Notes: generated from the sequence alone by a model not told the origin. Positions 1,167 through 21,416 are shown, numbered from the stretch's first letter. The stretch is 32,000 nucleotides of DNA from Nanopusillaceae archaeon (GCA_049974095.1 JBMFJD010000001.1:60001-92000), one strand, 5' to 3'. Numbers and translations are program-made.

Positions 1167-2276
1167 TTATTTAAATAATCCAGTAATATATATTTGAGGC
1201 ATATTTCCAAATGGAGGCAATATTCTTATTCTGATCCAATATATTTGTAAATTTGTTACATTTTGACCAAATACGAATATATTTGCATTCGATACCTTTG
1301 GTACTTGTGGAGCTGCACCAGCTTGATGATAATTATTCAAAAATATGCTAATATAATTATTATATCCTATACTATATACTGCTGGTACATTTGCGTTATA
1401 TAAAAAACTGCTTAAACTATTTCCATCAACAATAGATAACAAAGTATTATATAATGATGGATTCGCACAACAATATGCACCATCTGTAGAACAACTTATA
1501 TTTAAACTTGTTCCTGTTCCAAATTTAATTTCTTCTTGACTTAGTAAAGATAAGTAGAAATCAACCATATAGCCAGATAAATTATATGTATTTAAAGTAT
1601 ATATTCCAGATATTCCAAAAGAATTCAAATAAACATAATTACTACCGTTATATATTTTTCCTATTATTCCAAATAAAGATGGATTATTAAAATCTTTAGG
1701 AGTCCAATAGTAAGTGAATACTTGTTGTCCATTATCATATCCTTGAACTACATATGGATTTGCTCCTACATATGGATAATATAATTGATAATAATCTATA
1801 TTATTACTTCCTATTCCCATATAAATTGTTATATTTGTATTATTAGAAATTCCATTTGGTAATTTTACCCACCATACATCACAAGTTATTCCATTATTAT
1901 TTAGTTGACCTTCATACCAAGAATATAATAGAGAACCTGTTAGATTAGAAGTATTTGTGAAGAAAAGTGCATTTTGGCCATTTGGATTTATTTCCAAAAA
2001 TATAGAATAATTATCTATATAATAGAAACCACTACCTAGGCTCATACTTCCATTACATATTGCAATATCTTGTTGAAAACCTGGAGGAATAGTTTGTATT
2101 TGATTATTATATAAAGTTAATTCTAATATAGTAGTTGGTTTATATTGCTGTGCGCTTGGTTGAGTATAAGATGATGGTGTAGATACTTCAGTTTTTTGTC
2201 CCAACAACACAAGCAATCCTATCAACAATACTATAACTACAAATAAAACAATATACATTTTATTTATACTTCTCAT
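1167..2276 (-). CDS. Secreted/membrane-anchored Asn-rich surface protein with DUF2341/LamG-like region; paralog of the C-terminal part of the 718-aa protein at 10021-12177
   Basis: N-terminal hydrophobic anchor MYIVLFVVIVLLIGLLVLLG and many N-x-S/T sequons. Blocks shared with the 10021-12177 protein: FQQDIAICN, LLYSWYEGQLNNNGITCDVWWVKLP, YYQLYYPYVGANPYVVQGYDNGQ, and the C-terminal PPFGNMPQIYI. The '...W.....a.VWVKvP....t.iY' pattern resembles DUF2341. Confidence 0.6.
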   Translation of the reverse strand: MRSINKMYIVLFVVIVLLIGLLVLLGQKTEVSTPSSYTQPSAQQYKPTTILELTLYNNQIQTIPPGFQQDIAICNGSMSLGSGFYYIDNYSIFLEINPNGQNALFFTNTSNLTGSLLYSWYEGQLNNNGITCDVWWVKLPNGISNNTNITIYMGIGSNNIDYYQLYYPYVGANPYVVQGYDNGQQVFTYYWTPKDFNNPSLFGIIGKIYNGSNYVYLNSFGISGIYTLNTYNLSGYMVDFYLSLLSQEEIKFGTGTSLNISCSTDGAYCCANPSLYNTLLSIVDGNSLSSFLYNANVPAVYSIGYNNYISIFLNNYHQAGAAPQVPKVSNANIFVFGQNVTNLQIYWIRIRILPPFGNMPQIYITGLFK

Positions 2277-2410: not shown

Positions 2411-5209
2411 TTATGCTATTACACATTCTGACCAACCACAATCTAAACAAGTTACACATCCTCCCTCATGTTTTAGTCTCGTACTTCCACAAACAGGACA
2501 TCTTTCTATATTATTATTATTGATACTTTCTGGTGTTATTTTTGGTTCAACGAGGTCTATCTTTACTTTTATATCTCCAAAATTATCTTTGTTTTCTTTA
2601 TTATTCAATAATTCATCATACCATGCAGGTATTTTTATTCTAAAATCTTTTAATATCTCTATTGTTTTATTTTTTATTTTTCCTTCTTTTATTAATCTAA
2701 AGTATTCTCTTAATCTTTCTTTACTTGCTTCTGATGGAGCATAATATACTTGAGCAGATTTTGATCCTTCCCTATATATTGTAATTCCTTTACATCCAGC
2801 CTTATATGCAAATATATATGCGTTCAATACATCCTCAAGAGTAACCCAATTTGGCATATTTATTGTTTTCGATATTGATGTAGTTATCCATAATTGAGCA
2901 ACTGCTTGAGCTCTAATATGATCCCACCATGGTATATCCAATGCTGTTAAAAATATTAATTTTAGATCATCTGGTATTTCTTTTATTCCTAATAAACTTC
3001 CACCATTATCTGATATTTTCTTTAATATTTCATCATTATATAATCCTTTTTCTTTTAATTGTCTTTCCAATTCTGGATCTACATAATAATATACTCCTGC
3101 AGTTACTCTTTTTTCGTATACTAGTGCATATTGTGGTTCTATTCCTGAAGAAGTATCTGCTAACATTGAAATAGAACCTGTTGGAGCAACAGAAGTAACT
3201 TCAACATTTCTTATTCCATATTTTATTATTTGTTCCCTCAAATATTCCCAATCTAATGTCCATAATTCCTTATGATAATATCCTTCTACTGGCATTTCTC
3301 CATTCTTATATGTTGTTTGATCATATTTTGAGAATTTATCTCTTGTTTTTGCCCTTTCAACAGATTCTAGCATTGCATAATAAGTTAAATATTCAGAGAC
3401 TTTTCTTATCAATTCAAATCCTTCTTCTGAAGAATATGGAATACCTAATGCAAATAAAGTATCTGCAAGTCCCATAAATCCTAATCCAACCCTTCTTACA
3501 GCTTTTGATGCTTCTTCTATTTCTTTTAATGGATATTTATTTACATCAATTACATTATCTAAAAATCTATAAGCCCATTTTATTGTTTCTATATATTTTT
3601 CCCAATTAAATTCTGCCTTTCCATCTTTGAAATCAATCATTGCATATAAATTAATTGATCCTAAATTACAAGATTCATATGGATATAAAGGTTGCTCTCC
3701 ACAGGGATTTGTAGCTCTAATTGAGCCTCTATATTTATATTGAACATTTCTTTTATTTATATTATCCATAAACAAGCATCCAGGATCTGCTTTTTCCCAT
3801 GCAATATATGCAGCTTCTGACAATAATTGTTTTGGATCAACATAATTTATTGTTGCCTCCTTTGGCATTTTTTCTAGATCAAAATTTAAATCTCCAGGTA
3901 ATGGATAATTATATTTTCTTAATATTCTTGGATTTATTAATGGATATGGTTTATTTTCTTCATAATATTTCCAGAAATTTGGTTCGAACATAACAGAAAT
4001 ATTAAAGTTTTCTAATATTCCTTCTTTTTCTTTTGCATGAATAAATTTTAATATATCTGGATGCCAAGATTCTAATATACCCATGTTTGCTCCTCTTCTT
4101 TTTCCTCCTTGTTTTACAACATCTGTTACAGTATCTATTATTCTCATAAAAGATATAGGACCTGATGCTACGCCTCCAGTAGATGCAACAACATCTCCCT
4201 CAGGTCTTAATTTTGAATAATTTACTCCAATACCCCCTCCAGATTTAAATATTAAAGCAGCATCTCTAGCAGATTTCATAATTGATTCCATATCATCTTC
4301 AATATCTAATACAAAGCATGCAGCTAATTGTCCTAATACAGCACCAGCATTAAATAATGTTGGAGAATTTGGCATAAATTTCTTTGTTGCCATCAAATCA
4401 AAATATTTTAGGTAATTTTCATAATAGCTATCGAATTCCCCTCTTTTTATCATTTCTAAAAATTCTGACCATTTTACTTTCATATGACCTCTCTCATTTA
4501 AATAATCATACAAATATTTCATTCTTTCTAAATGATATCTATTCCACTTTAATTTATAATCTCCATTTTCTTTCTTTAATCCAATTTTATATTCATATTC
4601 TGTTGGATTAAAATCTTCTTTTGGTTTTATACTTTGTTTTCCCTCTTTATCATATACTCTTTCATCATATAACAAATCTGGAATAATAATTAATGCAGCA
4701 ACTCTTTCAAACATTTGTTTTGGTCCTTCAATCAAATTTTTATTTTCATCCCTTAGCAAATATCTATTTACCATTAATCTTATTGAATTAATTGAAAACC
4801 TCTTTGCAACTTCTTCCTCATAGAATTTTCCCAACAGATTTATTTTTTCCTGCCTAATTTTTTCTTTTTCTTTTCTATATGTAATATATGCTTTTGCCAC
4901 TTCATATAAATCGAACTTCAATAATGATAACTCTACAATATCTTGAATCTGTTCAACAGATGGAATTTCTTTATCTCCAAATCTTTCTTCTAAAACATTA
5001 ATTACATATTCTGTTACCCTTTCTAATATTTCTTTATTATATTTTCCTGTTGCTTTCATTGCTCTTTCTATAGCATAATATATTCTATATGGATCAAAAT
5101 CAACAATTTTTCCGTCTCTTTTTCTAACCTTTTTTATTTTATATTCTCTTTCCAAGAAAACAGATCTAGAATCTATCTTATTTTTATTTATAAAATCTTC
5201 ATTTACCAT
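2411..5209 (-). CDS. nrdJ: Class II (adenosylcobalamin-dependent) ribonucleotide reductase with N-terminal ATP-cone and C-terminal zinc ribbon
   Basis: ATP-cone-like N-terminus ([24 protein letters not shown]). Active-site motif [23 protein letters not shown]. Also [14 protein letters not shown], and a C-terminal [26 protein letters not shown] ribbon. I found no intein-like insertion. Confidence 0.9.
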
Positions 5210-8243: not shown

Positions 8244-9059
8244 ATGAAAGCTGGATTAGAAATACATCAACAAATAGATACGGACAAAAAATTATTTTGT
8301 AATTGTCCAACAGAATTATATGATAATTATAAATATAGAATTGAAAGAAAATTAAGAGTAACGCAAAGTGAAATTGGAAAAAGAGATATTGCAGCAGAAT
8401 ATGAAACTATGAAGGATAAATTATATATATATGAATATTCTCCAGAATACTCTTGTTTAGTTGAACTTGATGAAGAACCCCCTCATCTAATTAATTTAGA
8501 TGCATTAAAATTTGGAATATTAATTTCTACATATTTCAATATGTATATCCCAAAAGTTTTACAAATTATGAGAAAAATTGTTGTAGACGGGTCAAATACT
8601 TCAGGATTTCAAAGAACATTATTATTATCATTAAATGGAGAATTAAATTATAAAGGAAAAACAATTGGTATAAGTACAATATGTATAGAAGAAGATGCTG
8701 CTAGAAAAATTGAAGAAGGAGAAAATTATATTGTTTATAGATTAGATAGATTAGGAATACCATTAATCGAAATATCTACAGGTCCTGATTTAAATAATCC
8801 AAAAGAAGTAAAAGAAGTTGCAGAATATATTGGATTAATATTAAGATTAACAGGAAAGGTTAAAAGAGGATTAGGAACTATAAGACAGGATTTAAATATT
8901 TCAATAGAAGGAGGAGAAAAAATTGAAATAAAGGGAGTACAAAACTTAAAGATAATTGATAAAATTGCTGAAAATGAAGTAAAAAGACAGGAAAAATTAT
9001 TAGAATGGGAAAAATTAGTAAAAGAAAGGGGAATTGATGGATATGAGTTAGAAGAATAG
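8244..9059 (+). CDS. gatE: Glu-tRNA(Gln) amidotransferase subunit E, N-terminal catalytic (cradle) portion only (271 aa)
   Basis: MKAGLEIHQQIDTDKKLFCNCP..., SCLVELDEEPPH, MRKIVVDGSNTSGFQRT, ICIEEDAARK, YRLDRLGIPLIEISTGPD, KRGLGTIRQDLNISIEGGEKIEIKGVQNL. These are GatE signatures. The ORF stops well before the helical and tail domains of full-length GatE. Confidence 0.8.
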   Translation: MKAGLEIHQQIDTDKKLFCNCPTELYDNYKYRIERKLRVTQSEIGKRDIAAEYETMKDKLYIYEYSPEYSCLVELDEEPPHLINLDALKFGILISTYFNMYIPKVLQIMRKIVVDGSNTSGFQRTLLLSLNGELNYKGKTIGISTICIEEDAARKIEEGENYIVYRLDRLGIPLIEISTGPDLNNPKEVKEVAEYIGLILRLTGKVKRGLGTIRQDLNISIEGGEKIEIKGVQNLKIIDKIAENEVKRQEKLLEWEKLVKERGIDGYELEE

Positions 9060-9090
9060 ATTTATATTTTTTAATAAATTTTAATTATAA

Positions 9091-9570
9091 ATGAAAAGTC
9101 AGTTTGGGACAATTATTGTAGAAATTATATTATTTATTGTTGCTGCTATTGCTGCTTATACTTTTGTATCCGTAGCATATACAAATCTAAATGGAATAAA
9201 CAATGCTGCTATTGCAAATTCAAAATCATTAGAAAATCAATTAAATACATATATTACAATTGATTCTTGTGCATATAATTCTTCCACAAATTTATTATAT
9301 TTATATGTAACAAATAGAGGAAATAATATTTTAAATCAGAATATAACATTATTATTCATTAATGGAGGACTAATAAATAATACATTAATATATATAGCAA
9401 ACAGCTATACAGGAACTTCTGCTTGGGGACCGTATGATACAATTGCTATAGTAGCAAATGCTTCTTTATCAACAGATTTTTATAATGTAAAAGTTGTAGC
9501 AGATACCGGAGCATATGTACAAAATATAATTTATGTAAATACAACTGCAAATTCATGTACAATAGAATGA
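9091..9570 (+). CDS. Small surface-filament-type protein with N-terminal hydrophobic helix (FlaF/FlaG- or type IV pilin-like)
   Basis: The N-terminus MKSQFG|TIIVEIILFIVAAIAAYTFV has a short polar leader, a Gly, then a hydrophobic helix with Glu at +5. It is followed by a predicted beta-rich, sequon-rich domain (LLYLYVTNRGNNILNQNITLLFINGG). Its stop overlaps the next gene's ATG (ATGA). Confidence 0.5.
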   Translation: MKSQFGTIIVEIILFIVAAIAAYTFVSVAYTNLNGINNAAIANSKSLENQLNTYITIDSCAYNSSTNLLYLYVTNRGNNILNQNITLLFINGGLINNTLIYIANSYTGTSAWGPYDTIAIVANASLSTDFYNVKVVADTGAYVQNIIYVNTTANSCTIE

Positions 9571-10010
9571 GATCTGATTTAGGATCAATAGTTGGGCTAA
9601 TAATTAGTTTTGTAGTATTTTTTATTTCAATAACAATTTTATATTTAATTTTGAATAATACATTTAAAGGATACTATTCTGCATATACCATTACAAGAGA
9701 AATAAAAAATATTGTTGGAGAAAACATAGAATTTCTAAATAATCAAACAAATTATTCTTCTCCATATTTAATTATTTATAATAATGGAAATAAAGCATTG
9801 GATTTATCTTGTTTTCAATTATATACAAATGGCTATTTTACTCCATTTAATTACTCTATAAATTATCTATATCCATCGAATTTATTATTATCTGGAGAAA
9901 ATGCAACAATTTATTTTTCAAATCAATATTTAGTAAATAATTCATGGAATTATATTATATTGGTTTCATGCTATGGGGTAAAATTTCAAACTTTAATATT
10001 TTCAAATTAG
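9567..10010 (+). CDS. Small surface-filament-type protein, second FlaF/FlaG- or pilin-like paralog
   Basis: I chose the ATG at 9567 (MRSDLGSIVGLIISFVVFFISITILYLIL...) because it forms an ATGA overlap with the upstream stop. The track's start at 9555 is in the same frame. The same 'xIIYNNGNKALDL..F.L.TNG' strand pattern appears as in the upstream gene. Confidence 0.45.
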   Translation: MRSDLGSIVGLIISFVVFFISITILYLILNNTFKGYYSAYTITREIKNIVGENIEFLNNQTNYSSPYLIIYNNGNKALDLSCFQLYTNGYFTPFNYSINYLYPSNLLLSGENATIYFSNQYLVNNSWNYIILVSCYGVKFQTLIFSN

Positions 10011-10020
10011 TTAATATATT

Positions 10021-12177
10021 ATGAAATTACAAAGTGAAGCATATGTAGCACTATTATTTGTAATTTCTGCTGGTATTATTACTATATTATTATATAATAT
10101 TTTATTTCCTCATATTTCAAATATAAATCCAACTGGACAGGCAATTACAGAATCTTTAAAAATTAACTTCCAACTTCTAGATTATTTTATACAAAATAAT
10201 ACATTATATGCATATGTAAAACCATCAGAACCTGTAAATGCTTCACAAGTATTTGCAATTATAAATAATGAACTAGTTCCTGTTTATTCAATTAATTCTA
10301 ATAGTTCTATAGTTAATCCATATAATAATGGATTATTATTAATTGTTGCAAATTTATCTCAAATACCTGTAGATCAAAACGGAAATTATCAAATAGTGGT
10401 AGGATTAGAAAATGATATTGTTGGTGTTTTTACCATACATTATATGTCTAATGCATTAAGAAATTTCTTTCATCCAATTATTCAATATAATGTTTCTGCT
10501 TTCTCTTCTTCTTCAAGCTTTAAATGTTCACTTTCTCCACCTTATTATTGTATTTATCTGTATAATACTCAAAATATTTCTACTCCTGTACCTTTCCAAC
10601 AAGATATCGAAATATGTAATACAACATCGCTCTATCTTACAAATCAAAATGCAACATATAATCTCATAGGATATAATTATACCATTGGAAGTGTAAGTTC
10701 TAGTGGAAAGGGTAAAAAAACATATTATTCAAATGCAATAATTACTTTACCAAATTCCAATATATATTTATGCTTAGGCGCTGGAAATGTATCCTTTTCC
10801 ATATCTTATAATTCACAAGAAAATGCATCTGGATATGCTATAATTGGATACTCTAATACCAATAATTGTTCAGCTTCTTATTCTGGTTCTTCTGTACCAG
10901 ATGTCGTTGTGGGAGGGTATTCTATAAATACTACAGATTATAGTTTCCTGAATAGTGCATATTATTTTGAAGGTACAACATTTAATAATATAAAAAGTTT
11001 TTCTTATAATTACACTGTATATAATATCTCAAATGTTACAATATCAATTGCTTGTGGATTAAGCAAATGTAATTCAATTAATATACCAGCTGGATGTAAT
11101 GTAATACTTTATAATACAACAGCGGATAATTCAACAACAATTTTTGTAGCTAATTGTTACAATCAATTACCAGGAAATTATAATATAAATGGAACATTAT
11201 TAACCAACGGATATGTTGCACTTGGAGTTTATTTATTTAGTCCAAATATATCTATATATTATTTAATAAATCTAAATGGTCAAAATGTTTATTTCTTTAC
11301 AAATTCTTCTAATCCTCAAAATTCTTTATTATATTCTTGGTATGAAGGACAATTAAATAATGATGGAGTAACTTGTGATGTATGGTGGGTAAATATTTCT
11401 CAAGGAATTCCTGCAAATAATTATACAACAATTTATATGAATATCAATTCTACAAATACTAATTATTATCGATTGTATTATCCATATGTAGGAGCAAATC
11501 CATATGTAATTCAAGGATATGACAATGGACAAAATGTATTCTTAATATATAATAATGGAAGTCAAACATTCCAATATACACGAATTGGAACGGGAGGATC
11601 TATCAGTACTACATCTACTGGTCCTTCTCCTTATAATTATGATATAGTAATGTCGGTAAATGGTGGAGGTGCTAGTGCAACCACATGGACAACAACATGG
11701 ACAAATTCTACACAATTACCTTCTTCATATATTGCACAAATGTTAGTATATATAACAGGATCTTCTCCTTTAATTGATATGTTAACAAATATACAGAATT
11801 ATCCAAATGGAGCTTTTTATGTATTTAGATTTGATGCTAGAGGTACATACTATGATGGAATAGGATACTATCCAGCAGGAGGAACAGGAACACAATTTTT
11901 AAATTATACTAGTATAACATCTTCAACAAATACGTGGTATCAAATGACTGTAATAGATAATAATGGATATTTATATTTATATAAATCTACTTCTTTTAAT
12001 TTGGGAAATTATGGTAATTTAGAAGCTTCTTATAATACTCAAGGAACATCTTATTATCTATCTGGAAGAGGTTTTGGTATAACTACAGATGGTGCAACCT
12101 CTACAGATTATTATACTTTAATATTAGTTAGAGCATATCCACCAAATGGAGTTATGCCACAGGTATATATAAGTTAA
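10021..12177 (+). CDS. Large secreted Asn/Cys-rich glycoprotein candidate: FlaG/pilin-like N-terminal helix, Cys-rich insertion, and DUF2341/LamG-like C-terminal region (putative adhesin)
   Basis: N-terminus MKLQSEAYVALLFVISAGIITILLYNILF. I count about 27 N-x-S/T sequons by hand. There is a Cys-containing middle segment (CLGAGN, NNCSASY, IACGLSKCNSINIPAGCNV, VANCYNQ). The C-terminal part contains LLYSWYEGQLNNDGVTCDVWWVNIS...TTIYMNINS and a LamG-like WYQMTVIDNNGYLYLYKS. It lies 10 nt downstream of the preceding gene. Confidence 0.6.
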   Translation: MKLQSEAYVALLFVISAGIITILLYNILFPHISNINPTGQAITESLKINFQLLDYFIQNNTLYAYVKPSEPVNASQVFAIINNELVPVYSINSNSSIVNPYNNGLLLIVANLSQIPVDQNGNYQIVVGLENDIVGVFTIHYMSNALRNFFHPIIQYNVSAFSSSSSFKCSLSPPYYCIYLYNTQNISTPVPFQQDIEICNTTSLYLTNQNATYNLIGYNYTIGSVSSSGKGKKTYYSNAIITLPNSNIYLCLGAGNVSFSISYNSQENASGYAIIGYSNTNNCSASYSGSSVPDVVVGGYSINTTDYSFLNSAYYFEGTTFNNIKSFSYNYTVYNISNVTISIACGLSKCNSINIPAGCNVILYNTTADNSTTIFVANCYNQLPGNYNINGTLLTNGYVALGVYLFSPNISIYYLINLNGQNVYFFTNSSNPQNSLLYSWYEGQLNNDGVTCDVWWVNISQGIPANNYTTIYMNINSTNTNYYRLYYPYVGANPYVIQGYDNGQNVFLIYNNGSQTFQYTRIGTGGSISTTSTGPSPYNYDIVMSVNGGGASATTWTTTWTNSTQLPSSYIAQMLVYITGSSPLIDMLTNIQNYPNGAFYVFRFDARGTYYDGIGYYPAGGTGTQFLNYTSITSSTNTWYQMTVIDNNGYLYLYKSTSFNLGNYGNLEASYNTQGTSYYLSGRGFGITTDGATSTDYYTLILVRAYPPNGVMPQVYIS

Positions 12178-12205: not shown

Positions 12206-12278
<73 letters not shown>

Positions 12279-13220
12279 CTAATGGGTTTCCCATCCAACA
12301 GATTCTTCAAATCCTAATAATTTTTTAATATAAAATTCTAATAGATTTTTTTCTTTATTTGTTATTTTGCATTCATTATGTGCTAATTTTAAATATCTTG
12401 GATATGATTGATAAAAATATATGTTTTCTTTTATTATTTCTAAAAATTTTTCTCTTCCAATTTTTTCCAATCCTTCTATTCTATATATATGATCATTATA
12501 TCTTGCCCTAAAATACATTATTAATATTTTTTTATTGAATATTTTATTTAATATTTCATCTGGAACTTTTCCTTTAAAGAAATAATCTAATTCTTTTTCC
12601 ATTATATCTGTATAGAATATCTCATTTGGAAATGCTCTCATTAAAATTATCATATCCGATTTTCCTTTCCTTATTATATCTAAATTTAATATTCTTTTTG
12701 CAACTGCTAATAAATTTCCATTGTTAATTAAATATTCAAAATTCTCTAGGAATTCCTTTTTTCTATCTTCAATTCTTTCATCATCAAATTTTTCTAAAAA
12801 TTTAGAATACAATATTCCATCAGAAATTATTGATCCATCTATAAAAATATATCTATCACTATATTTTCTTGCCAATTTATATTCTAAATTTTTAGAAAAT
12901 AGAGAAGAAATATCTGATATATCAAAATTTCCTCCACTTTCAGATCTTAAAAAAGTATTCTCAAAAAATTCTATATCTTCTATTACATCATATAGATCTT
13001 CAGAAATAATTACTGCTCTAGAATATACATATGTATAAGGCCCAATTATTCCATTTATATATGAAGAATCTATAAATCCATATTTTTTATCTTTTTTTAA
13101 TTCTATATTATCCAGATTTATTGTTTTTATACTTTCTTTTTCTATCTTAAAATTTAAATTTATTTCTTTTATTTTATTTATTTTTTCATTTATTTTTTTT
13201 AATAGCTCTTCTTTTATCAT
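12279..13220 (-). CDS. NurA-domain-like nuclease candidate (314 aa after trimming the start)
   Basis: I trimmed the start to the ATG at 13218-13220 (MIKEELLKK...). The track's first 58 codons are antisense to tRNA-Ser and the GC-rich element. Two DxS-type motifs (YGFIDSSY and YIFIDGSIISDG) and a C-terminal YPRYLKLAHNECKI resemble NurA-domain motifs. Confidence 0.5.
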   Translation of the reverse strand: MIKEELLKKINEKINKIKEINLNFKIEKESIKTINLDNIELKKDKKYGFIDSSYINGIIGPYTYVYSRAVIISEDLYDVIEDIEFFENTFLRSESGGNFDISDISSLFSKNLEYKLARKYSDRYIFIDGSIISDGILYSKFLEKFDDERIEDRKKEFLENFEYLINNGNLLAVAKRILNLDIIRKGKSDMIILMRAFPNEIFYTDIMEKELDYFFKGKVPDEILNKIFNKKILIMYFRARYNDHIYRIEGLEKIGREKFLEIIKENIYFYQSYPRYLKLAHNECKITNKEKNLLEFYIKKLLGFEESVGWETH

Positions 13221-13255
13221 AATTATTTTATAATTTAAAGATATATAATATATAT

Positions 13256-13317
13256 CCCCGCTTAGACGAACCAATGTGAGAATATGATCATTGGTAACGA
13301 TGGGCCGGGGGACAACA
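13256..13317 (+). ncRNA. GC-rich structured RNA candidate with single-hairpin H/ACA-guide-like architecture, directly upstream of tRNA-Ser
   Basis: Lower stem CCCCG (13256-13260) / CGGGG (13306-13310). Internal loop strands CTTAGACGA and AACGATGGGC. Upper stem ACCAATG (13270-13276) / CATTGGT (13289-13295). The 12-nt apical loop TGAGAATATGAT has GA at both ends (K-loop-like). ACAACA follows the stem at 13312-13317. A TTTATA box lies at 13227-13232, 29 nt upstream of 13256. The region is about 50% GC in a ~25% GC genome. Confidence 0.35.
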
Positions 13318-13318
13318 T

Positions 13319-13402
13319 GCCGCGGTGCCCGAGTGGACCAAGGGGTCTGGCTGGAGACCAGATCCCCGAAAGGGGGCGTGGGTTCAAATCCCACCCGCGG
13401 CG
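13319..13402 (+). tRNA. tRNA-Ser (anticodon GGA), class II with long variable arm, no intron, no encoded CCA
   Basis: Acceptor GCCGCGG/CCGCGGC with discriminator G. Anticodon stem TCTGG/CCAGA with loop CTGGAGA. Variable arm tCCCCgaaaGGGGgc. T-arm GTGGG-TTCAAAT-CCCAC. Confidence 0.9.
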
Positions 13403-13438
13403 TTTAATTTAAATAAATATTTATTTTAATTATTACCT

Positions 13439-19342: not shown

Positions 19343-19624
19343 ATGAAAATAGTTAGGGAAAATGATAATGAAATAGAAATATTGTTTGAAAAAGATAGAC
19401 CAACATCTGTCATGCTAATAAAAGAAGAATTGGATAAAGACGAAAATGTAATAATTTCTGGATGGAGAGAAGATCATCCTTTATTAAAGAATATATATTT
19501 GTATATAAGAACAAATAATAAAGAAAAAGCAAGAGAGGCTTTAATTAATGCAATTGAAAGGGCTTTAAAGAGGGTTTCTAATTTTAGAGAAGAATATAAT
19601 AAAATAATTGATGAACTTAGATAA
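19343..19624 (+). CDS. rpoL: DNA-directed RNA polymerase subunit Rpo11 (RpoL)
   Basis: The size (93 aa) and pattern fit Rpo11: NEIEILFEKDRPTSVMLIKEELDKDENVIISGWREDHPLLKNIYLYIRTN...AREALINAIERAL, i.e. E.E....T..N.L...L....V.f..Y...HPl...+.i.T....p..Al..A. Confidence 0.7.
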   Translation: MKIVRENDNEIEILFEKDRPTSVMLIKEELDKDENVIISGWREDHPLLKNIYLYIRTNNKEKAREALINAIERALKRVSNFREEYNKIIDELR

Positions 19625-21416
19625 AGTTACTTTAGATACTTCTGTAATTATTGATGAATATTTATCAAAAGCAATAGAAGAAAATAGAATAAACGTAAAA
19701 GAAATAATAATTCCATTACCTGCTATTGATGAATTACAGGCACAAGCAAACAAAGGATATGAAAAAGGAGTTGTTGGGCTAAGAGAAATACAAAGATTAA
19801 GAGAATTATCTGAAAAATATGGAATCAAGATAACAATATTAGGAGAAAAACCAACATTGGAGCAAATAAAATTAGCAAAATCTGGATATATTGATTATTT
19901 AATAATAAAAATTGCTATGAATACAAACTCTACATTATTGACATCAGATAGAATTTTATATGAAACAGCAAAAGCATATAATGTTAAATGCATGTATATA
20001 GAAAAACAAAATGTTTCTATTGAAAAACCATCATTTTTAGATTTATTTACAGATGATACAATGTCAGTTCATATTATTGAAAATACAAAGGTAAAAAGAA
20101 AAAGGGGAAGACCTGGAGAATGGTATTTAGAAGAAACAGATATTATATATGATAGAGAAAAAATTGAAAAATTGATTGATGAAATAATTTTTATTGTAAG
20201 AAATAGAAGAGATTCTTTTATTGAAAAAGAAAGGAAAAGTAGCTTAATAATACAAATTGGAATGTTTAGAATTGTAATTGTAAAACCTCCTTTATCTGAT
20301 TCGTATGAAATAACAATTGTAAGACCAGTTAAGATATTAAAATTGGAAGATTATAATTTACCAGAAAAGATATTAGAGAGATTTAAGGAAAAAGCAGAAG
20401 GAATTGTTATTACTGGAAAACCTGGATCTGGAAAAACAACATTTGCACAAGCATTAGCAGAATATTATCTAAATATGAAGAAAATTGTAAAAACAATAGA
20501 ATCTCCAAGAGATTTATTTTTATCACCAGATATTGTTCAATATTCAAAAAATTCTTCAGATAGAAATGAATTACACGATATTTTATTATTATCAAGACCA
20601 GATTATGTTATATTTGATGAAATGAGAAATACTGATGATTTTAAAATATATATTGATTTAAGACTTGCTGGTGTTGGAATGATTGGAGTTGCACATGCAG
20701 AGAGACCAATAGATATAATACATAGATTTTTATCTAGAACAGAGCTTGGATTAATACCTCAAATAATTGATACAATAGTATATATTGAGAAAGGAAAGAT
20801 AGAGAAAGTATACTATTTAAATTTGGTTGTTAAAATACCACACGGATTAAAAGAAGAAGATCTTGCAAGACCTGTTGTAGAAATTAGAGATTATTTAACA
20901 AATGAAGTAGAATATGAGATATATACATTTGGAGAAGAAATAATGGTTGTACCTGTTAAAAAATATAAATTTAAATCTGGAATACAAAGATTTTTAGAAG
21001 ATTTATTAAATTCTGAATTTAAAAGAAAATATAGTAATGTATTTATTTATGTATATGATGATAAAATTATATTTTATATTCCAAGAAATTTAAGAAAGAA
21101 ATTTATTAAGAATGAGAAAAGGTATTTATTAAGTATTAAAAACAAATATAATCTAAGAATAGAAATAAGATCCTTAGAAAGTTTAGAAAACGAAAGTATA
21201 CCATATGATTATGAAATAGAAAAGAATCAAATAGTTTTGATATCAAATAGTTTATTTAAGAAAAAAGATGTAGAAATATATGTTGATAATAAATCTATTG
21301 GAAGATTTAAAGTAAATAAGAAAGGAAAAATTGTTATTGATAGAAATAGCGAAATTGGGAAATTTTTAGAAGAAGCAATAAATAATAAAAGAAAAATAGA
21401 AATAAGATTAATATGA
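19608..21416 (+). CDS. PIN domain / P-loop ATPase (PilT/PhoH-like) / KH-domain protein (COG1855-type archaeal ATPase)
   Basis: N-terminal PIN-like LDTSVIIDE...LTSD. Walker A ITGKPGSGKTTFAQALAEY and Walker B-like YVIFDEMR. The C-terminal region is KH-like. It overlaps rpoL by 17 nt. Confidence 0.7.
   Translation: MMNLDKVTLDTSVIIDEYLSKAIEENRINVKEIIIPLPAIDELQAQANKGYEKGVVGLREIQRLRELSEKYGIKITILGEKPTLEQIKLAKSGYIDYLIIKIAMNTNSTLLTSDRILYETAKAYNVKCMYIEKQNVSIEKPSFLDLFTDDTMSVHIIENTKVKRKRGRPGEWYLEETDIIYDREKIEKLIDEIIFIVRNRRDSFIEKERKSSLIIQIGMFRIVIVKPPLSDSYEITIVRPVKILKLEDYNLPEKILERFKEKAEGIVITGKPGSGKTTFAQALAEYYLNMKKIVKTIESPRDLFLSPDIVQYSKNSSDRNELHDILLLSRPDYVIFDEMRNTDDFKIYIDLRLAGVGMIGVAHAERPIDIIHRFLSRTELGLIPQIIDTIVYIEKGKIEKVYYLNLVVKIPHGLKEEDLARPVVEIRDYLTNEVEYEIYTFGEEIMVVPVKKYKFKSGIQRFLEDLLNSEFKRKYSNVFIYVYDDKIIFYIPRNLRKKFIKNEKRYLLSIKNKYNLRIEIRSLESLENESIPYDYEIEKNQIVLISNSLFKKKDVEIYVDNKSIGRFKVNKKGKIVIDRNSEIGKFLEEAINNKRKIEIRLI

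Follow-up and report, generated by a model that had tools for sequence, protein, structure and literature searches.

A predicted Nanopusillaceae operon that joins an archaellum stator pair to a third stator-type protein with a lectin-type head

Three adjacent genes, here called P1, P2 and P3, occupy positions 9091-12177 of a 32,000-nucleotide (nt) stretch of DNA from a Nanopusillaceae archaeon (GCA_049974095.1, JBMFJD010000001.1:60001-92000), which we call the window. The ArlG/ArlF (FlaG/FlaF) stator of the archaellum, described in S. acidocaldarius (FlaF structure PDB 4P94; PMC8667602), resembles P1 and P2 in being encoded by small adjacent genes whose products combine a helix with an archaellin-type sandwich. 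P1 belongs to arCOG01822/PF01917, relatives of P2 match ArlF, and the N-terminal domain of P3 shares the fold. However, P1 and P2 lie outside any arlB...arlHIJ operon and score under the equivalog cut-offs. Moreover, a third paralogue here carries a lectin-type extension of 500 amino acids (aa), and we found no such protein described for any stator.

Streptococcus sanguinis PilC (7OA8; PMC9934059) also joins a filament-type scaffold to a concanavalin A (ConA)-like lectin module, has a small partner pilin alongside, and is proposed to act in glycan-mediated host adhesion. However, PilC is bacterial, is processed at a class III signal and sits at the pilus tip, whereas the P3 scaffold is of stator type, and the two proteins have no detectable sequence relationship. 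In Methanococcus, Epd-type pilus loci encode DUF2341 proteins (arCOG03508) for which a role as PilY1-like tip adhesins was proposed (PMC4858521); there too, DUF2341 is linked to type IV filament components. Those proteins are large and stand-alone and occur with ATPase and platform genes, whereas the P3 domain is fused to an ArlG-like module and lies beside stator genes only. Some lectin-like proteins of DPANN archaea (Nanobdella MJ1_0179 and Nanohalobium LC1Nh_0399-401; bioRxiv 10.1101/2023.10.27.564410) were proposed for host recognition; like P3 they have a ConA-like sandwich, an N-terminal transmembrane helix, many sequons and a place on an ectosymbiont surface. Their likeness to the P3 head family is one of description, and the P3 orthologue MJ1_0774 is unmentioned in the main text of that Nanobdella surface paper.

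An earlier sequence-only reading of this DNA was not aware of any description of the combination in P3, for which the DUF2341 PilY-like adhesins and the bacterial lectin pilins offer precedents. Already known are P1 and P2, annotated as FlaG or FlaF in relatives, and the lectin module on a filament-family scaffold of bacterial modular pilins. What appears to be new is a stator-type scaffold with a lectin-type head, fixed in an operon with stator genes and subject to cassette-like head exchange. We tentatively read P3 as a stator-derived stalk displaying a glycan-binding head, probably for host capture, and hold this reading with a confidence that stops a little short of the halfway mark.

The three-gene unit and its stator pair

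The three genes are arranged as follows.

9091..9570, + strand: P1, 159 aa, ArlG/FlaG-family archaellum stator protein (PF01917, NCBIfam, orthologues, arCOG01822).
9567..10010, + strand: P2, 147 aa, ArlF/FlaF-like stator partner (ArlF match, family hidden Markov model (HMM), hhalign).
10021..12177, + strand: P3, 718 aa, stator-like N-terminal module with a putative DUF2341/ConA-like lectin head (homologue alignments, models).

The start of P2 overlaps the stop of P1 as ATGA, and a 10-nt spacer, TTAATATATT, separates P2 from P3; the sequence-only reading had described these three co-directional genes in the same terms. A second candidate ATG for P2, upstream at 9555, is not conserved: roughly half of the orthologous loci lack it, and we therefore placed the P2 start at 9567. 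A genome scan by very specific peptide patterns, which gives no absence verdict for Nanoarchaeum equitans, found a P1 orthologue in 13 Nanopusillaceae loci (YN1, Nanobdella, Nanobsidianus and Nanopusillus spp.). All three open reading frames (ORFs) were intact at eight of the 13, that is, on the contigs that reach far enough, and every one of these eight, from four named groups, had the same overlap and a spacer of 10-12 nt. This was the synteny comparison that the sequence-only reading had proposed, and it found the geometry fixed across Nanobdella, YN1, Nanopusillus and Nanobsidianus. The wider order GatE_N - P1 - P2 - P3 - NurA was read in Nanobdella, in a metagenome-assembled genome (MAG) of Nanopusillus acidilobi and in the gene table of N. 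acidilobi 7A. A fixed order in a phylum of scrambled gene order argues for a functional unit, and P1-P2-P3 is a predicted conserved operon of the Nanopusillaceae. Mean identity declines from 80% in P1 (orthologues 71-90% identical) to 77% in P2, 74% in the N-terminal domain of P3, 64% in its DUF2341 core and 30% in its distal half.

In each of the three proteins, a hydrophobic stretch of about 20 residues comes after a short polar leader at the N-terminus, as had been noticed before. Kyte-Doolittle windows above 1.8 are confined to the N-terminus in P1-P3, and the AlphaFold2 (AF2) model of P3 has a helix at residues 6-32. Charged residues make up 6-8% of P1-P3, against about 30% in their cytoplasmic neighbours. 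Very low charge is the usual mark of extracellular proteins in acidophiles, and the values of P1-P3 fit such proteins. P3 has 10 cysteines and exactly 27 N-x-S/T sequons, a count that the sequence-only reading had estimated correctly, compared with 17.4 +/- 3.6 from shuffles (p ~0.008). The strict class III signal motif ([KR][GA] before the hydrophobic stretch, the FlaFind rule) was found in none of P1-P3, again in line with that reading, and Pilin_N (PF07790) had no Pfam match in them.

P1 scored 38.7 bits on Pfam PF01917 (Arch_flagellin), whose gathering score is 29.5. On NCBIfam it scored 52.7 bits for ArlF (NF052590, E 5e-14) and 41 bits for ArlG (NF052591, E 2e-10), both under the equivalog cut-off of 110. 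P2 alone was barely detectable with the ArlF model (16.8 bits, E 0.006); within its family, nine of ten aligned members matched ArlF, the best with an E of 4.9e-16. An exhaustive search returned seven relatives of P2 with lengths of 141-148 aa at E ≤ 1e-10, and one more distant. The P1 and P2 families aligned with each other in hhalign at a probability of 94%. Against PDB sequences, the P1 profile gave a marginal match to the archaellin N-terminus and nothing else, and the P2 alignment gave nothing useful. The helix and archaellin-type sandwich ascribed to both proteins come from hydropathy, HMM coverage and the published prediction for MJ1_0772 and MJ1_0773.

The gene table of N. acidilobi lists Nps_03420, the orthologue of P1, as 'putative archaeal flagellar protein G' (arCOG01822; Nst1_196 given as its orthologue), and it has no further arCOG01822/FlaG entry; flaI/flaH/flaDE, the flagellins and flaJ occupy three other, distant loci. 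Makarova et al. reported a single FlaF and FlaG gene per archaellated archaeon, Nst1 included (PMC4858521). The gene list of the YN1 paper reads FlaBDEHIJF, and free Nanobdella cells are archaellated and swim (PMC11104419). Kato et al. described MJ1_0772 and MJ1_0773 as archaellin-like and without signal peptides. Based on the FlaG annotation in N. acidilobi, the single FlaF and FlaG genes of archaellated archaea and the swimming of relatives, P1 and P2 are most probably the usual ArlG and ArlF of the lineage's stator, encoded apart from the other archaellum genes. Their annotation is partial among relatives: N. acidilobi has a FlaG call, YN1 a FlaF call and Nanobdella no call for either. P1 and P2 are adjacent, as arlF/arlG-type genes are, and overlap by ATGA, but with no arlB or arlHIJ in proximity; the window holds no arlB, arlH, arlI, arlJ, prepilin peptidase, type IV pilus ATPase or platform gene.

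The sequence-only reading had rightly placed P1 and P2 in the FlaF/FlaG family, as PF01917, ArlF/ArlG and arCOG01822 all indicate. Its view of them as novel pilin-like genes has to be given up, because they are most probably ordinary arlG/arlF, P1 being annotated as FlaG in N. acidilobi, and because MJ1_0772 and MJ1_0773 had been noted earlier as archaellin-like. It had named as a counter-possibility that the pair would be the ordinary arlF/arlG of a complete archaellum operon, beside an unrelated 718-aa protein without surface exposure. The genes do appear to be ordinary arlF/arlG, but a complete archaellum operon is lacking, and the 718-aa P3 is a relative of the pair, predicted to be extracellular.

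We favour P1 as ArlG, because of its arCOG assignment and the invariant Gly6 and Glu11, and P2 as ArlF, because of the ArlF matches in its family; as judged from these sequences, the split between G and F is not fully clean. The N-terminus of P1 reads MKSQFG/TIIVE, and its G6 and E11 (the Gly and the Glu at +5 pointed out previously) are invariant in 10 orthologues, as are C60 and C156. Processed ArlG forms filaments by itself (PMC8667602), and the pilin-like signature of P1 would suit an ArlG of that kind. An invariant Gly at -1 together with Glu at +5 is what polymerising type IV pilins have, and could also be taken to mean that P1 and P2 are subunits of their own short filament or pseudopilus, with P3 as its tip adhesin for host attachment. 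This would agree with the ability of ArlG to form filaments alone, with the unidentified second appendage of 15 nm in Nanobdella (PMC11104419) and with the suggestion of Kato et al. that MJ1_0772 and MJ1_0773 are parts of additional filaments. However, no other ArlG/ArlF-family genes have been reported in these genomes, the archaellum requires such a pair, and these organisms swim; in addition, P1-P3 are without a class III motif and no dedicated ATPase or platform gene is nearby. A separate appendage is thus improbable, and we retain P1 and P2 as the stator pair of the archaellum.

A side observation concerns the 7A strain. Compared with the N. acidilobi MAG (L004), the complete genome of the cultured 7A strain (CP010514.1, L018 6001-6940) has two single-base insertions in P1 and one in P2, all three in or beside short T or A runs. 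The 7A annotation consequently lists just a 90-aa piece of P1 (Nps_03420) and leaves P2 out. The insertions are either sequencing errors or real frameshifts of the laboratory strain.

The scaffold and head of P3

The layout of P3 was obtained by comparison with about 200 homologues. The AF2 model of the full-length protein had a mean predicted local distance difference test (pLDDT) score of 58. All parts are on the + strand.

10036..10116, + strand: residues 6-32, N-terminal hydrophobic helix of membrane-anchor or filament-core type (AF2, pLDDT ≤ 92; hydropathy).
10162..10446, + strand: residues 48-142, beta-sandwich of the ArlF/G/archaellin fold, P1 paralogue (pLDDT 85-90; orthologue identity 74%).
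10447..10542, + strand: residues 143-174, Ser/Thr/Asn-rich linker (low pLDDT; 42% identity, variable length).
10543..10620, + strand: residues 175-200, first two head strands, YNTQNISTPxPFQQDIxICN (79% orthologue identity; family-invariant columns).
10621..11199, + strand: residues 201-393, Cys-bearing extra segment of 193 aa with 6 Cys (orthologue alignment, head HMM).
11200..11550, + strand: residues 394-510, DUF2341-type core (head HMM 160 bits; 64% orthologue identity).
11551..12174, + strand: residues 511-718, distal half, predicted ConA-like beta-sandwich ending in the RAYPPNGVMP strand (alignment; orthologue model).

The N-terminal domain of P3 aligned with the P1 family in hhalign at a probability of 89% (E 2e-6). 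An origin of this domain from the class-III pilin-type paralogues was rejected, as their N-terminal domains reached 18% against the 89% of P1. In Foldseek, the P3 model gave weak matches to the archaellin 9eq7_A (E 5e-3) and to S. acidocaldarius FlaF 4p94_A (E 0.15), and the full-length model returned nothing at E ≤ 1e-3. PDB profile searches with the P3 and N-terminal domain alignments gave nothing useful. Considering the alignment to P1 and the weak archaellin and FlaF matches, P3 is best described as a probable third ArlG/F-type paralogue, lineage-specific, that acquired a head. The fusion of a filament-type N-terminus to a lectin-type head, as proposed in the sequence-only reading, is borne out by the alignment to P1 and by an orthologue head model described below.

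Gene order in Nanoarchaeota is generally scrambled, and other paralogues of the head family stand alone among housekeeping genes, so P3 might be an unrelated surface glycoprotein that merely adjoins arlG/arlF without any functional link. This would leave unexplained the identical spacing in all intact loci of four named groups and the paralogy between the P3 N-terminal domain and P1. We consider chance adjacency very improbable and continue with P3 as a stator-type protein that carries a head.

PF10102 (DUF2341) had no match on P3 itself at E ≤ 1. It was matched by 20/74 aligned head relatives, the best with an E of 2e-7. Because the model of P3 is too weak at residues 481-718, the head was modelled in P0004, an orthologue that lacks the insertion and has 61% identity to P3 in the head (mean pLDDT 70, head 57-87). 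Its head gave 32 PDB matches at E ≤ 1e-3, and those listed were mostly ConA-like lectins, carbohydrate-binding modules (CBMs) and glucanases, among them CBM66 (TMt ≤ 0.73), the galectin LEC-6 (0.69), ERGIC-53, VIP36, calreticulin and GH16. One of the matches was 7oa8, the lectin-bearing modular pilin PilC (Foldseek E 3.8e-4). The assignment of the P3 head to DUF2341 with a ConA-like lectin fold is therefore supported at the level of family and predicted fold. Of the DUF2341/LamG-like head that had been claimed, the relatives and the P0004 fold uphold the type, but P3 itself gives no Pfam match. Glycan binding by the head is predicted from this fold.

The 193-aa segment at 201-393 splits the core from its first strands. 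It is present in the window, YN1 and Nanobdella, and absent from the Nanopusillus and Nanobsidianus orthologues. The head HMM covers P3 175-311, and the paralogous ORF at 1170-2276 of the window aligns to P3 180-279 (E 6e-5); in the model, 319-393 is beta-rich with a pLDDT of about 80 and 203-317 is poorly modelled. These alignments give moderate support to the view that the segment arose by internal duplication of the DUF2341 core and has since decayed. We rejected a foreign insertion because of the segment's weak alignment with that core. The Cys-containing insertion of about 180 aa in the sequence-only reading is thus real, but it is more likely a decayed copy than a foreign domain. Beyond the core, the distal half (511-700) has a mean identity of 30% and falls into at least three mutually unalignable types among the P3 orthologues, and the C-terminal strand RAYPPNGVMP is conserved family-wide.

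Among the 74 aligned head relatives, DUF2341 was matched by 20, archaeal Pilin_N by 13 and Arch_flagellin by nine. The head occurs behind four kinds of N-terminus, namely the stator-like module of P3, a class-III pilin/archaellin-like scaffold (MKSISPIIATIL...), a Sec signal and a bare hydrophobic anchor, and some of the Sec-signal members consist of the signal and one or two heads with nothing else. P0010 carries a P3-type head (60% identical, distal half included) on a pilin-type scaffold, which implies that heads move between scaffolds; P0023, P0089 and P0047 are further members with varied scaffolds. The occurrence of the same head on several scaffolds, together with the differing distal types among P3 orthologues, suggests that lectin heads may be exchanged cassette-like between surface scaffolds. 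In a search with the head profile, the best 120 matches were from Nanopusillaceae and metagenome relatives and gave no bridge to outside DUF2341 families. At the sensitivity tested, the head family is an apparent Nanopusillaceae-specific expansion. P3 family members are annotated among relatives only as hypothetical or 'flagellin-like'.

One paralogue of the head family lies in the window itself, 8 kb from P3 and on the opposite strand (1170-2276 (-), 369 aa). It is of the bare anchor type (MRSINKMYIVLFVVIV...), contains the motif LYNNQ...GFQQDIAICNG, ends in ...ILPPFGNMPQIYI, and is 63% identical in its core to P3 394-510. It has 10 sequons, 7% charged residues and no Pfam match. The sequence-only reading described the surroundings as housekeeping, which the gene content confirms, but this paralogue means that P1-P2-P3 is not the sole accessory surface locus. 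The pilin-type paralogues stand alone amid housekeeping genes, and against this background the fixed coupling of P3 to arlG/arlF stands out. A location of head-family paralogues in type IV filament (TFF) loci was considered and rejected, as they are lone genes beside S8e/LSM.

In Nanobdella, the proximal segment of the archaellum is corrugated and thorns occur on archaella sporadically, features so far unexplained (PMC11104419). Bulky heads on archaellin-fold scaffolds are found in P3 and its pilin-type paralogues alike, and P3 might accordingly polymerise by its ArlG-like N-terminal domain into the 76-nm proximal 'corrugated tube' of the archaellum or into the thorns. This argument is purely circumstantial, and the class-III-type paralogues would explain thorns better than P3 does, so that we rate it as quite improbable. 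A bolder version would have P3 and the class-III-pilin-type paralogues both built into the archaellum as tube or thorns, making the swimming organelle a lectin-armed device for grappling hosts, with specificity set by swaps of the head cassette; we regard it as a long shot.

Possible roles of P3

In the reading of P3 as a stalk with a glycan-binding head, P1 and P2, each a helix with an archaellin-type sandwich, would make up the pseudo-periplasmic stator that serves the archaellum motor. P3 would be inserted into the membrane by its helix, and its conserved N-terminal domain would sit with, or co-assemble onto, the ArlG/ArlF assembly. The Ser/Thr/Asn linker would be glycosylated and flexible, and would hold the head at or beyond the surface layer (S-layer), where it may bind glycans. 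P3 would then be a surface lectin or adhesin made along with the swimming apparatus for the host-seeking stage. This stage is the swimming stage (PMC11104419), and host and symbiont differ in their surface sugars.

The head is likely to be a payload and not an anchor, because it occurs alone behind Sec signals, anchors and class-III scaffolds and because its distal half is swapped. We favour host or other external glycans as the target since the head would be a payload and is hypervariable, and since its family has expanded in an organism that depends on a host.

On the other hand, P3 could brace the stator, with its N-terminal domain capping or joining ArlG/ArlF and its head gripping the cell's own lineage-specific, heavily glycosylated S-layer as a fixed point. 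S-layer binding is a known role of ArlF, by way of its beta-sandwich in Sulfolobus (PMC8667602), and the S-layer protein of Nanobdella is glycosylated and unrelated to known ones (Kato et al.). P3 is tightly coupled to arlG/arlF by the 10-nt spacer, a coupling conserved though the other arl genes are scattered, and its N-terminal domain is as conserved as P1 and P2. However, the distal half of the head is swapped among close species, although the S-layer proteins of YN1 and Nanobdella have a similarity of about 70%. Whole secreted proteins made of the same head without other payload also misfit a pure anchor module. We therefore consider bracing of the envelope the strongest of the rival explanations, though a rather unlikely one, and keep external glycan binding by P3 as the preferred one.

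Several results weigh against our preference. Stator co-assembly and contact of P3 with ArlG/ArlF, glycan binding, the glycan target and exposure beyond the S-layer are all parts of the model that we infer, and the operon linkage to stator genes would fit envelope bracing equally well. P1 and P2 score under the NCBIfam equivalog cut-offs, and the slightly higher score of P1 on the ArlF than on the ArlG model blurs the G/F split. P3 and its N-terminal domain had no Pfam or NCBIfam match. The fold evidence comes from an orthologue with a 61% identical head, the model of P3 itself being weak. Finally, the N. acidilobi proteome table holds no values for P1-P3, which have few tryptic sites.

Surroundings of the locus and its significance

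The window has a GC content of about 23% and, apart from the P1-P2-P3 locus and the one head-family paralogue, is made up of housekeeping genes. P3 is identical to a hypothetical protein from a Nanopusillaceae MAG; an exact-protein lookup found no record. Upstream of P1 are genes for ribonucleotide reductase, the NOG1 GTPase, HSP20, Memo and a stand-alone GatE N-terminal domain. Downstream of P3 are those for NurA, ribosomal proteins, Cdc6, the PolD small subunit, RLI, topoisomerase, thymidylate kinase and FttA, and a tRNA-His starts 30 nt past the end of P3. The short region ahead of P1 contains two features.

9060..9090, + strand: intergenic region 5' of P1, 31 nt (sequence read).
9061-9068, + strand: TATA-like TTTATATT, 23-30 nt ahead of the P1 ATG.

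It is possible that TTTATATT is the promoter of a leaderless P1 transcript, but such motifs are common at 23% GC.

The GatE/GatB gene at 8244-9059 (+) is an ORF of 271 aa for the lone N-terminal catalytic domain. Stand-alone ORFs of this kind (269-271 aa) also occur in Nanobdella and N. acidilobi, and the arrangement resembles that of a split gene whose other part lies elsewhere. On the other side, the NurA ORF (12279-13394 (-), GTG start) overlaps the opposite-strand tRNA-Ser at 13318-13403 (+), and its stop codon abuts the tRNA-His at 12207-12279 (+). The true NurA start is probably an internal ATG (MIKEELL...), because the orthologues have 305-310 aa.

In Nanobdella (L001 14086-18048), an extra surface protein of 1320 aa, MJ1_0776, is encoded between NurA and ribosomal protein L18; Kato et al. 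described it as pectin-lyase-like. A counterpart is absent from the window, where tRNA-Ser alone lies between NurA and L18 (13400-13440). The surroundings of the module are a site where surface genes are gained or lost.

Two further observations concern more distant genes. The large subunit of ribonucleotide reductase in the N. acidilobi MAG (L004 2072-5995) has 1307 aa and contains an intein with a LAGLIDADG domain. The intein is missing from the enzyme in the window (2411-5209 (-), 932 aa) and in Nanobdella (914 aa). At 19608-21416 (+) lies a gene for a 602-aa protein with an N-terminal PIN domain and a T2SSE-type ATPase domain. It was rejected as an archaellum or pilus ATPase, since its architecture is wrong and its context unlinked.

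Nanopusillaceae (Nanobdellales) belong to the small set of DPANN ectosymbionts in culture. To the question of how their free cells find a host and take hold of it, the locus contributes concrete candidates, to set beside the unexplained proximal and thorn structures and the second appendage seen by cryo-electron tomography. Its head family supplies several surface genes among the roughly 700 of the genome. P3 may tie swimming to sticking to the host. Should the head bind host glycans, host specificity would become accessible to test at the molecular level; binding to the symbiont's own S-layer would instead represent a new way of anchoring the archaellum stator. Both outcomes can be tested in the existing co-cultures of MJ1, YN1 and YN4.

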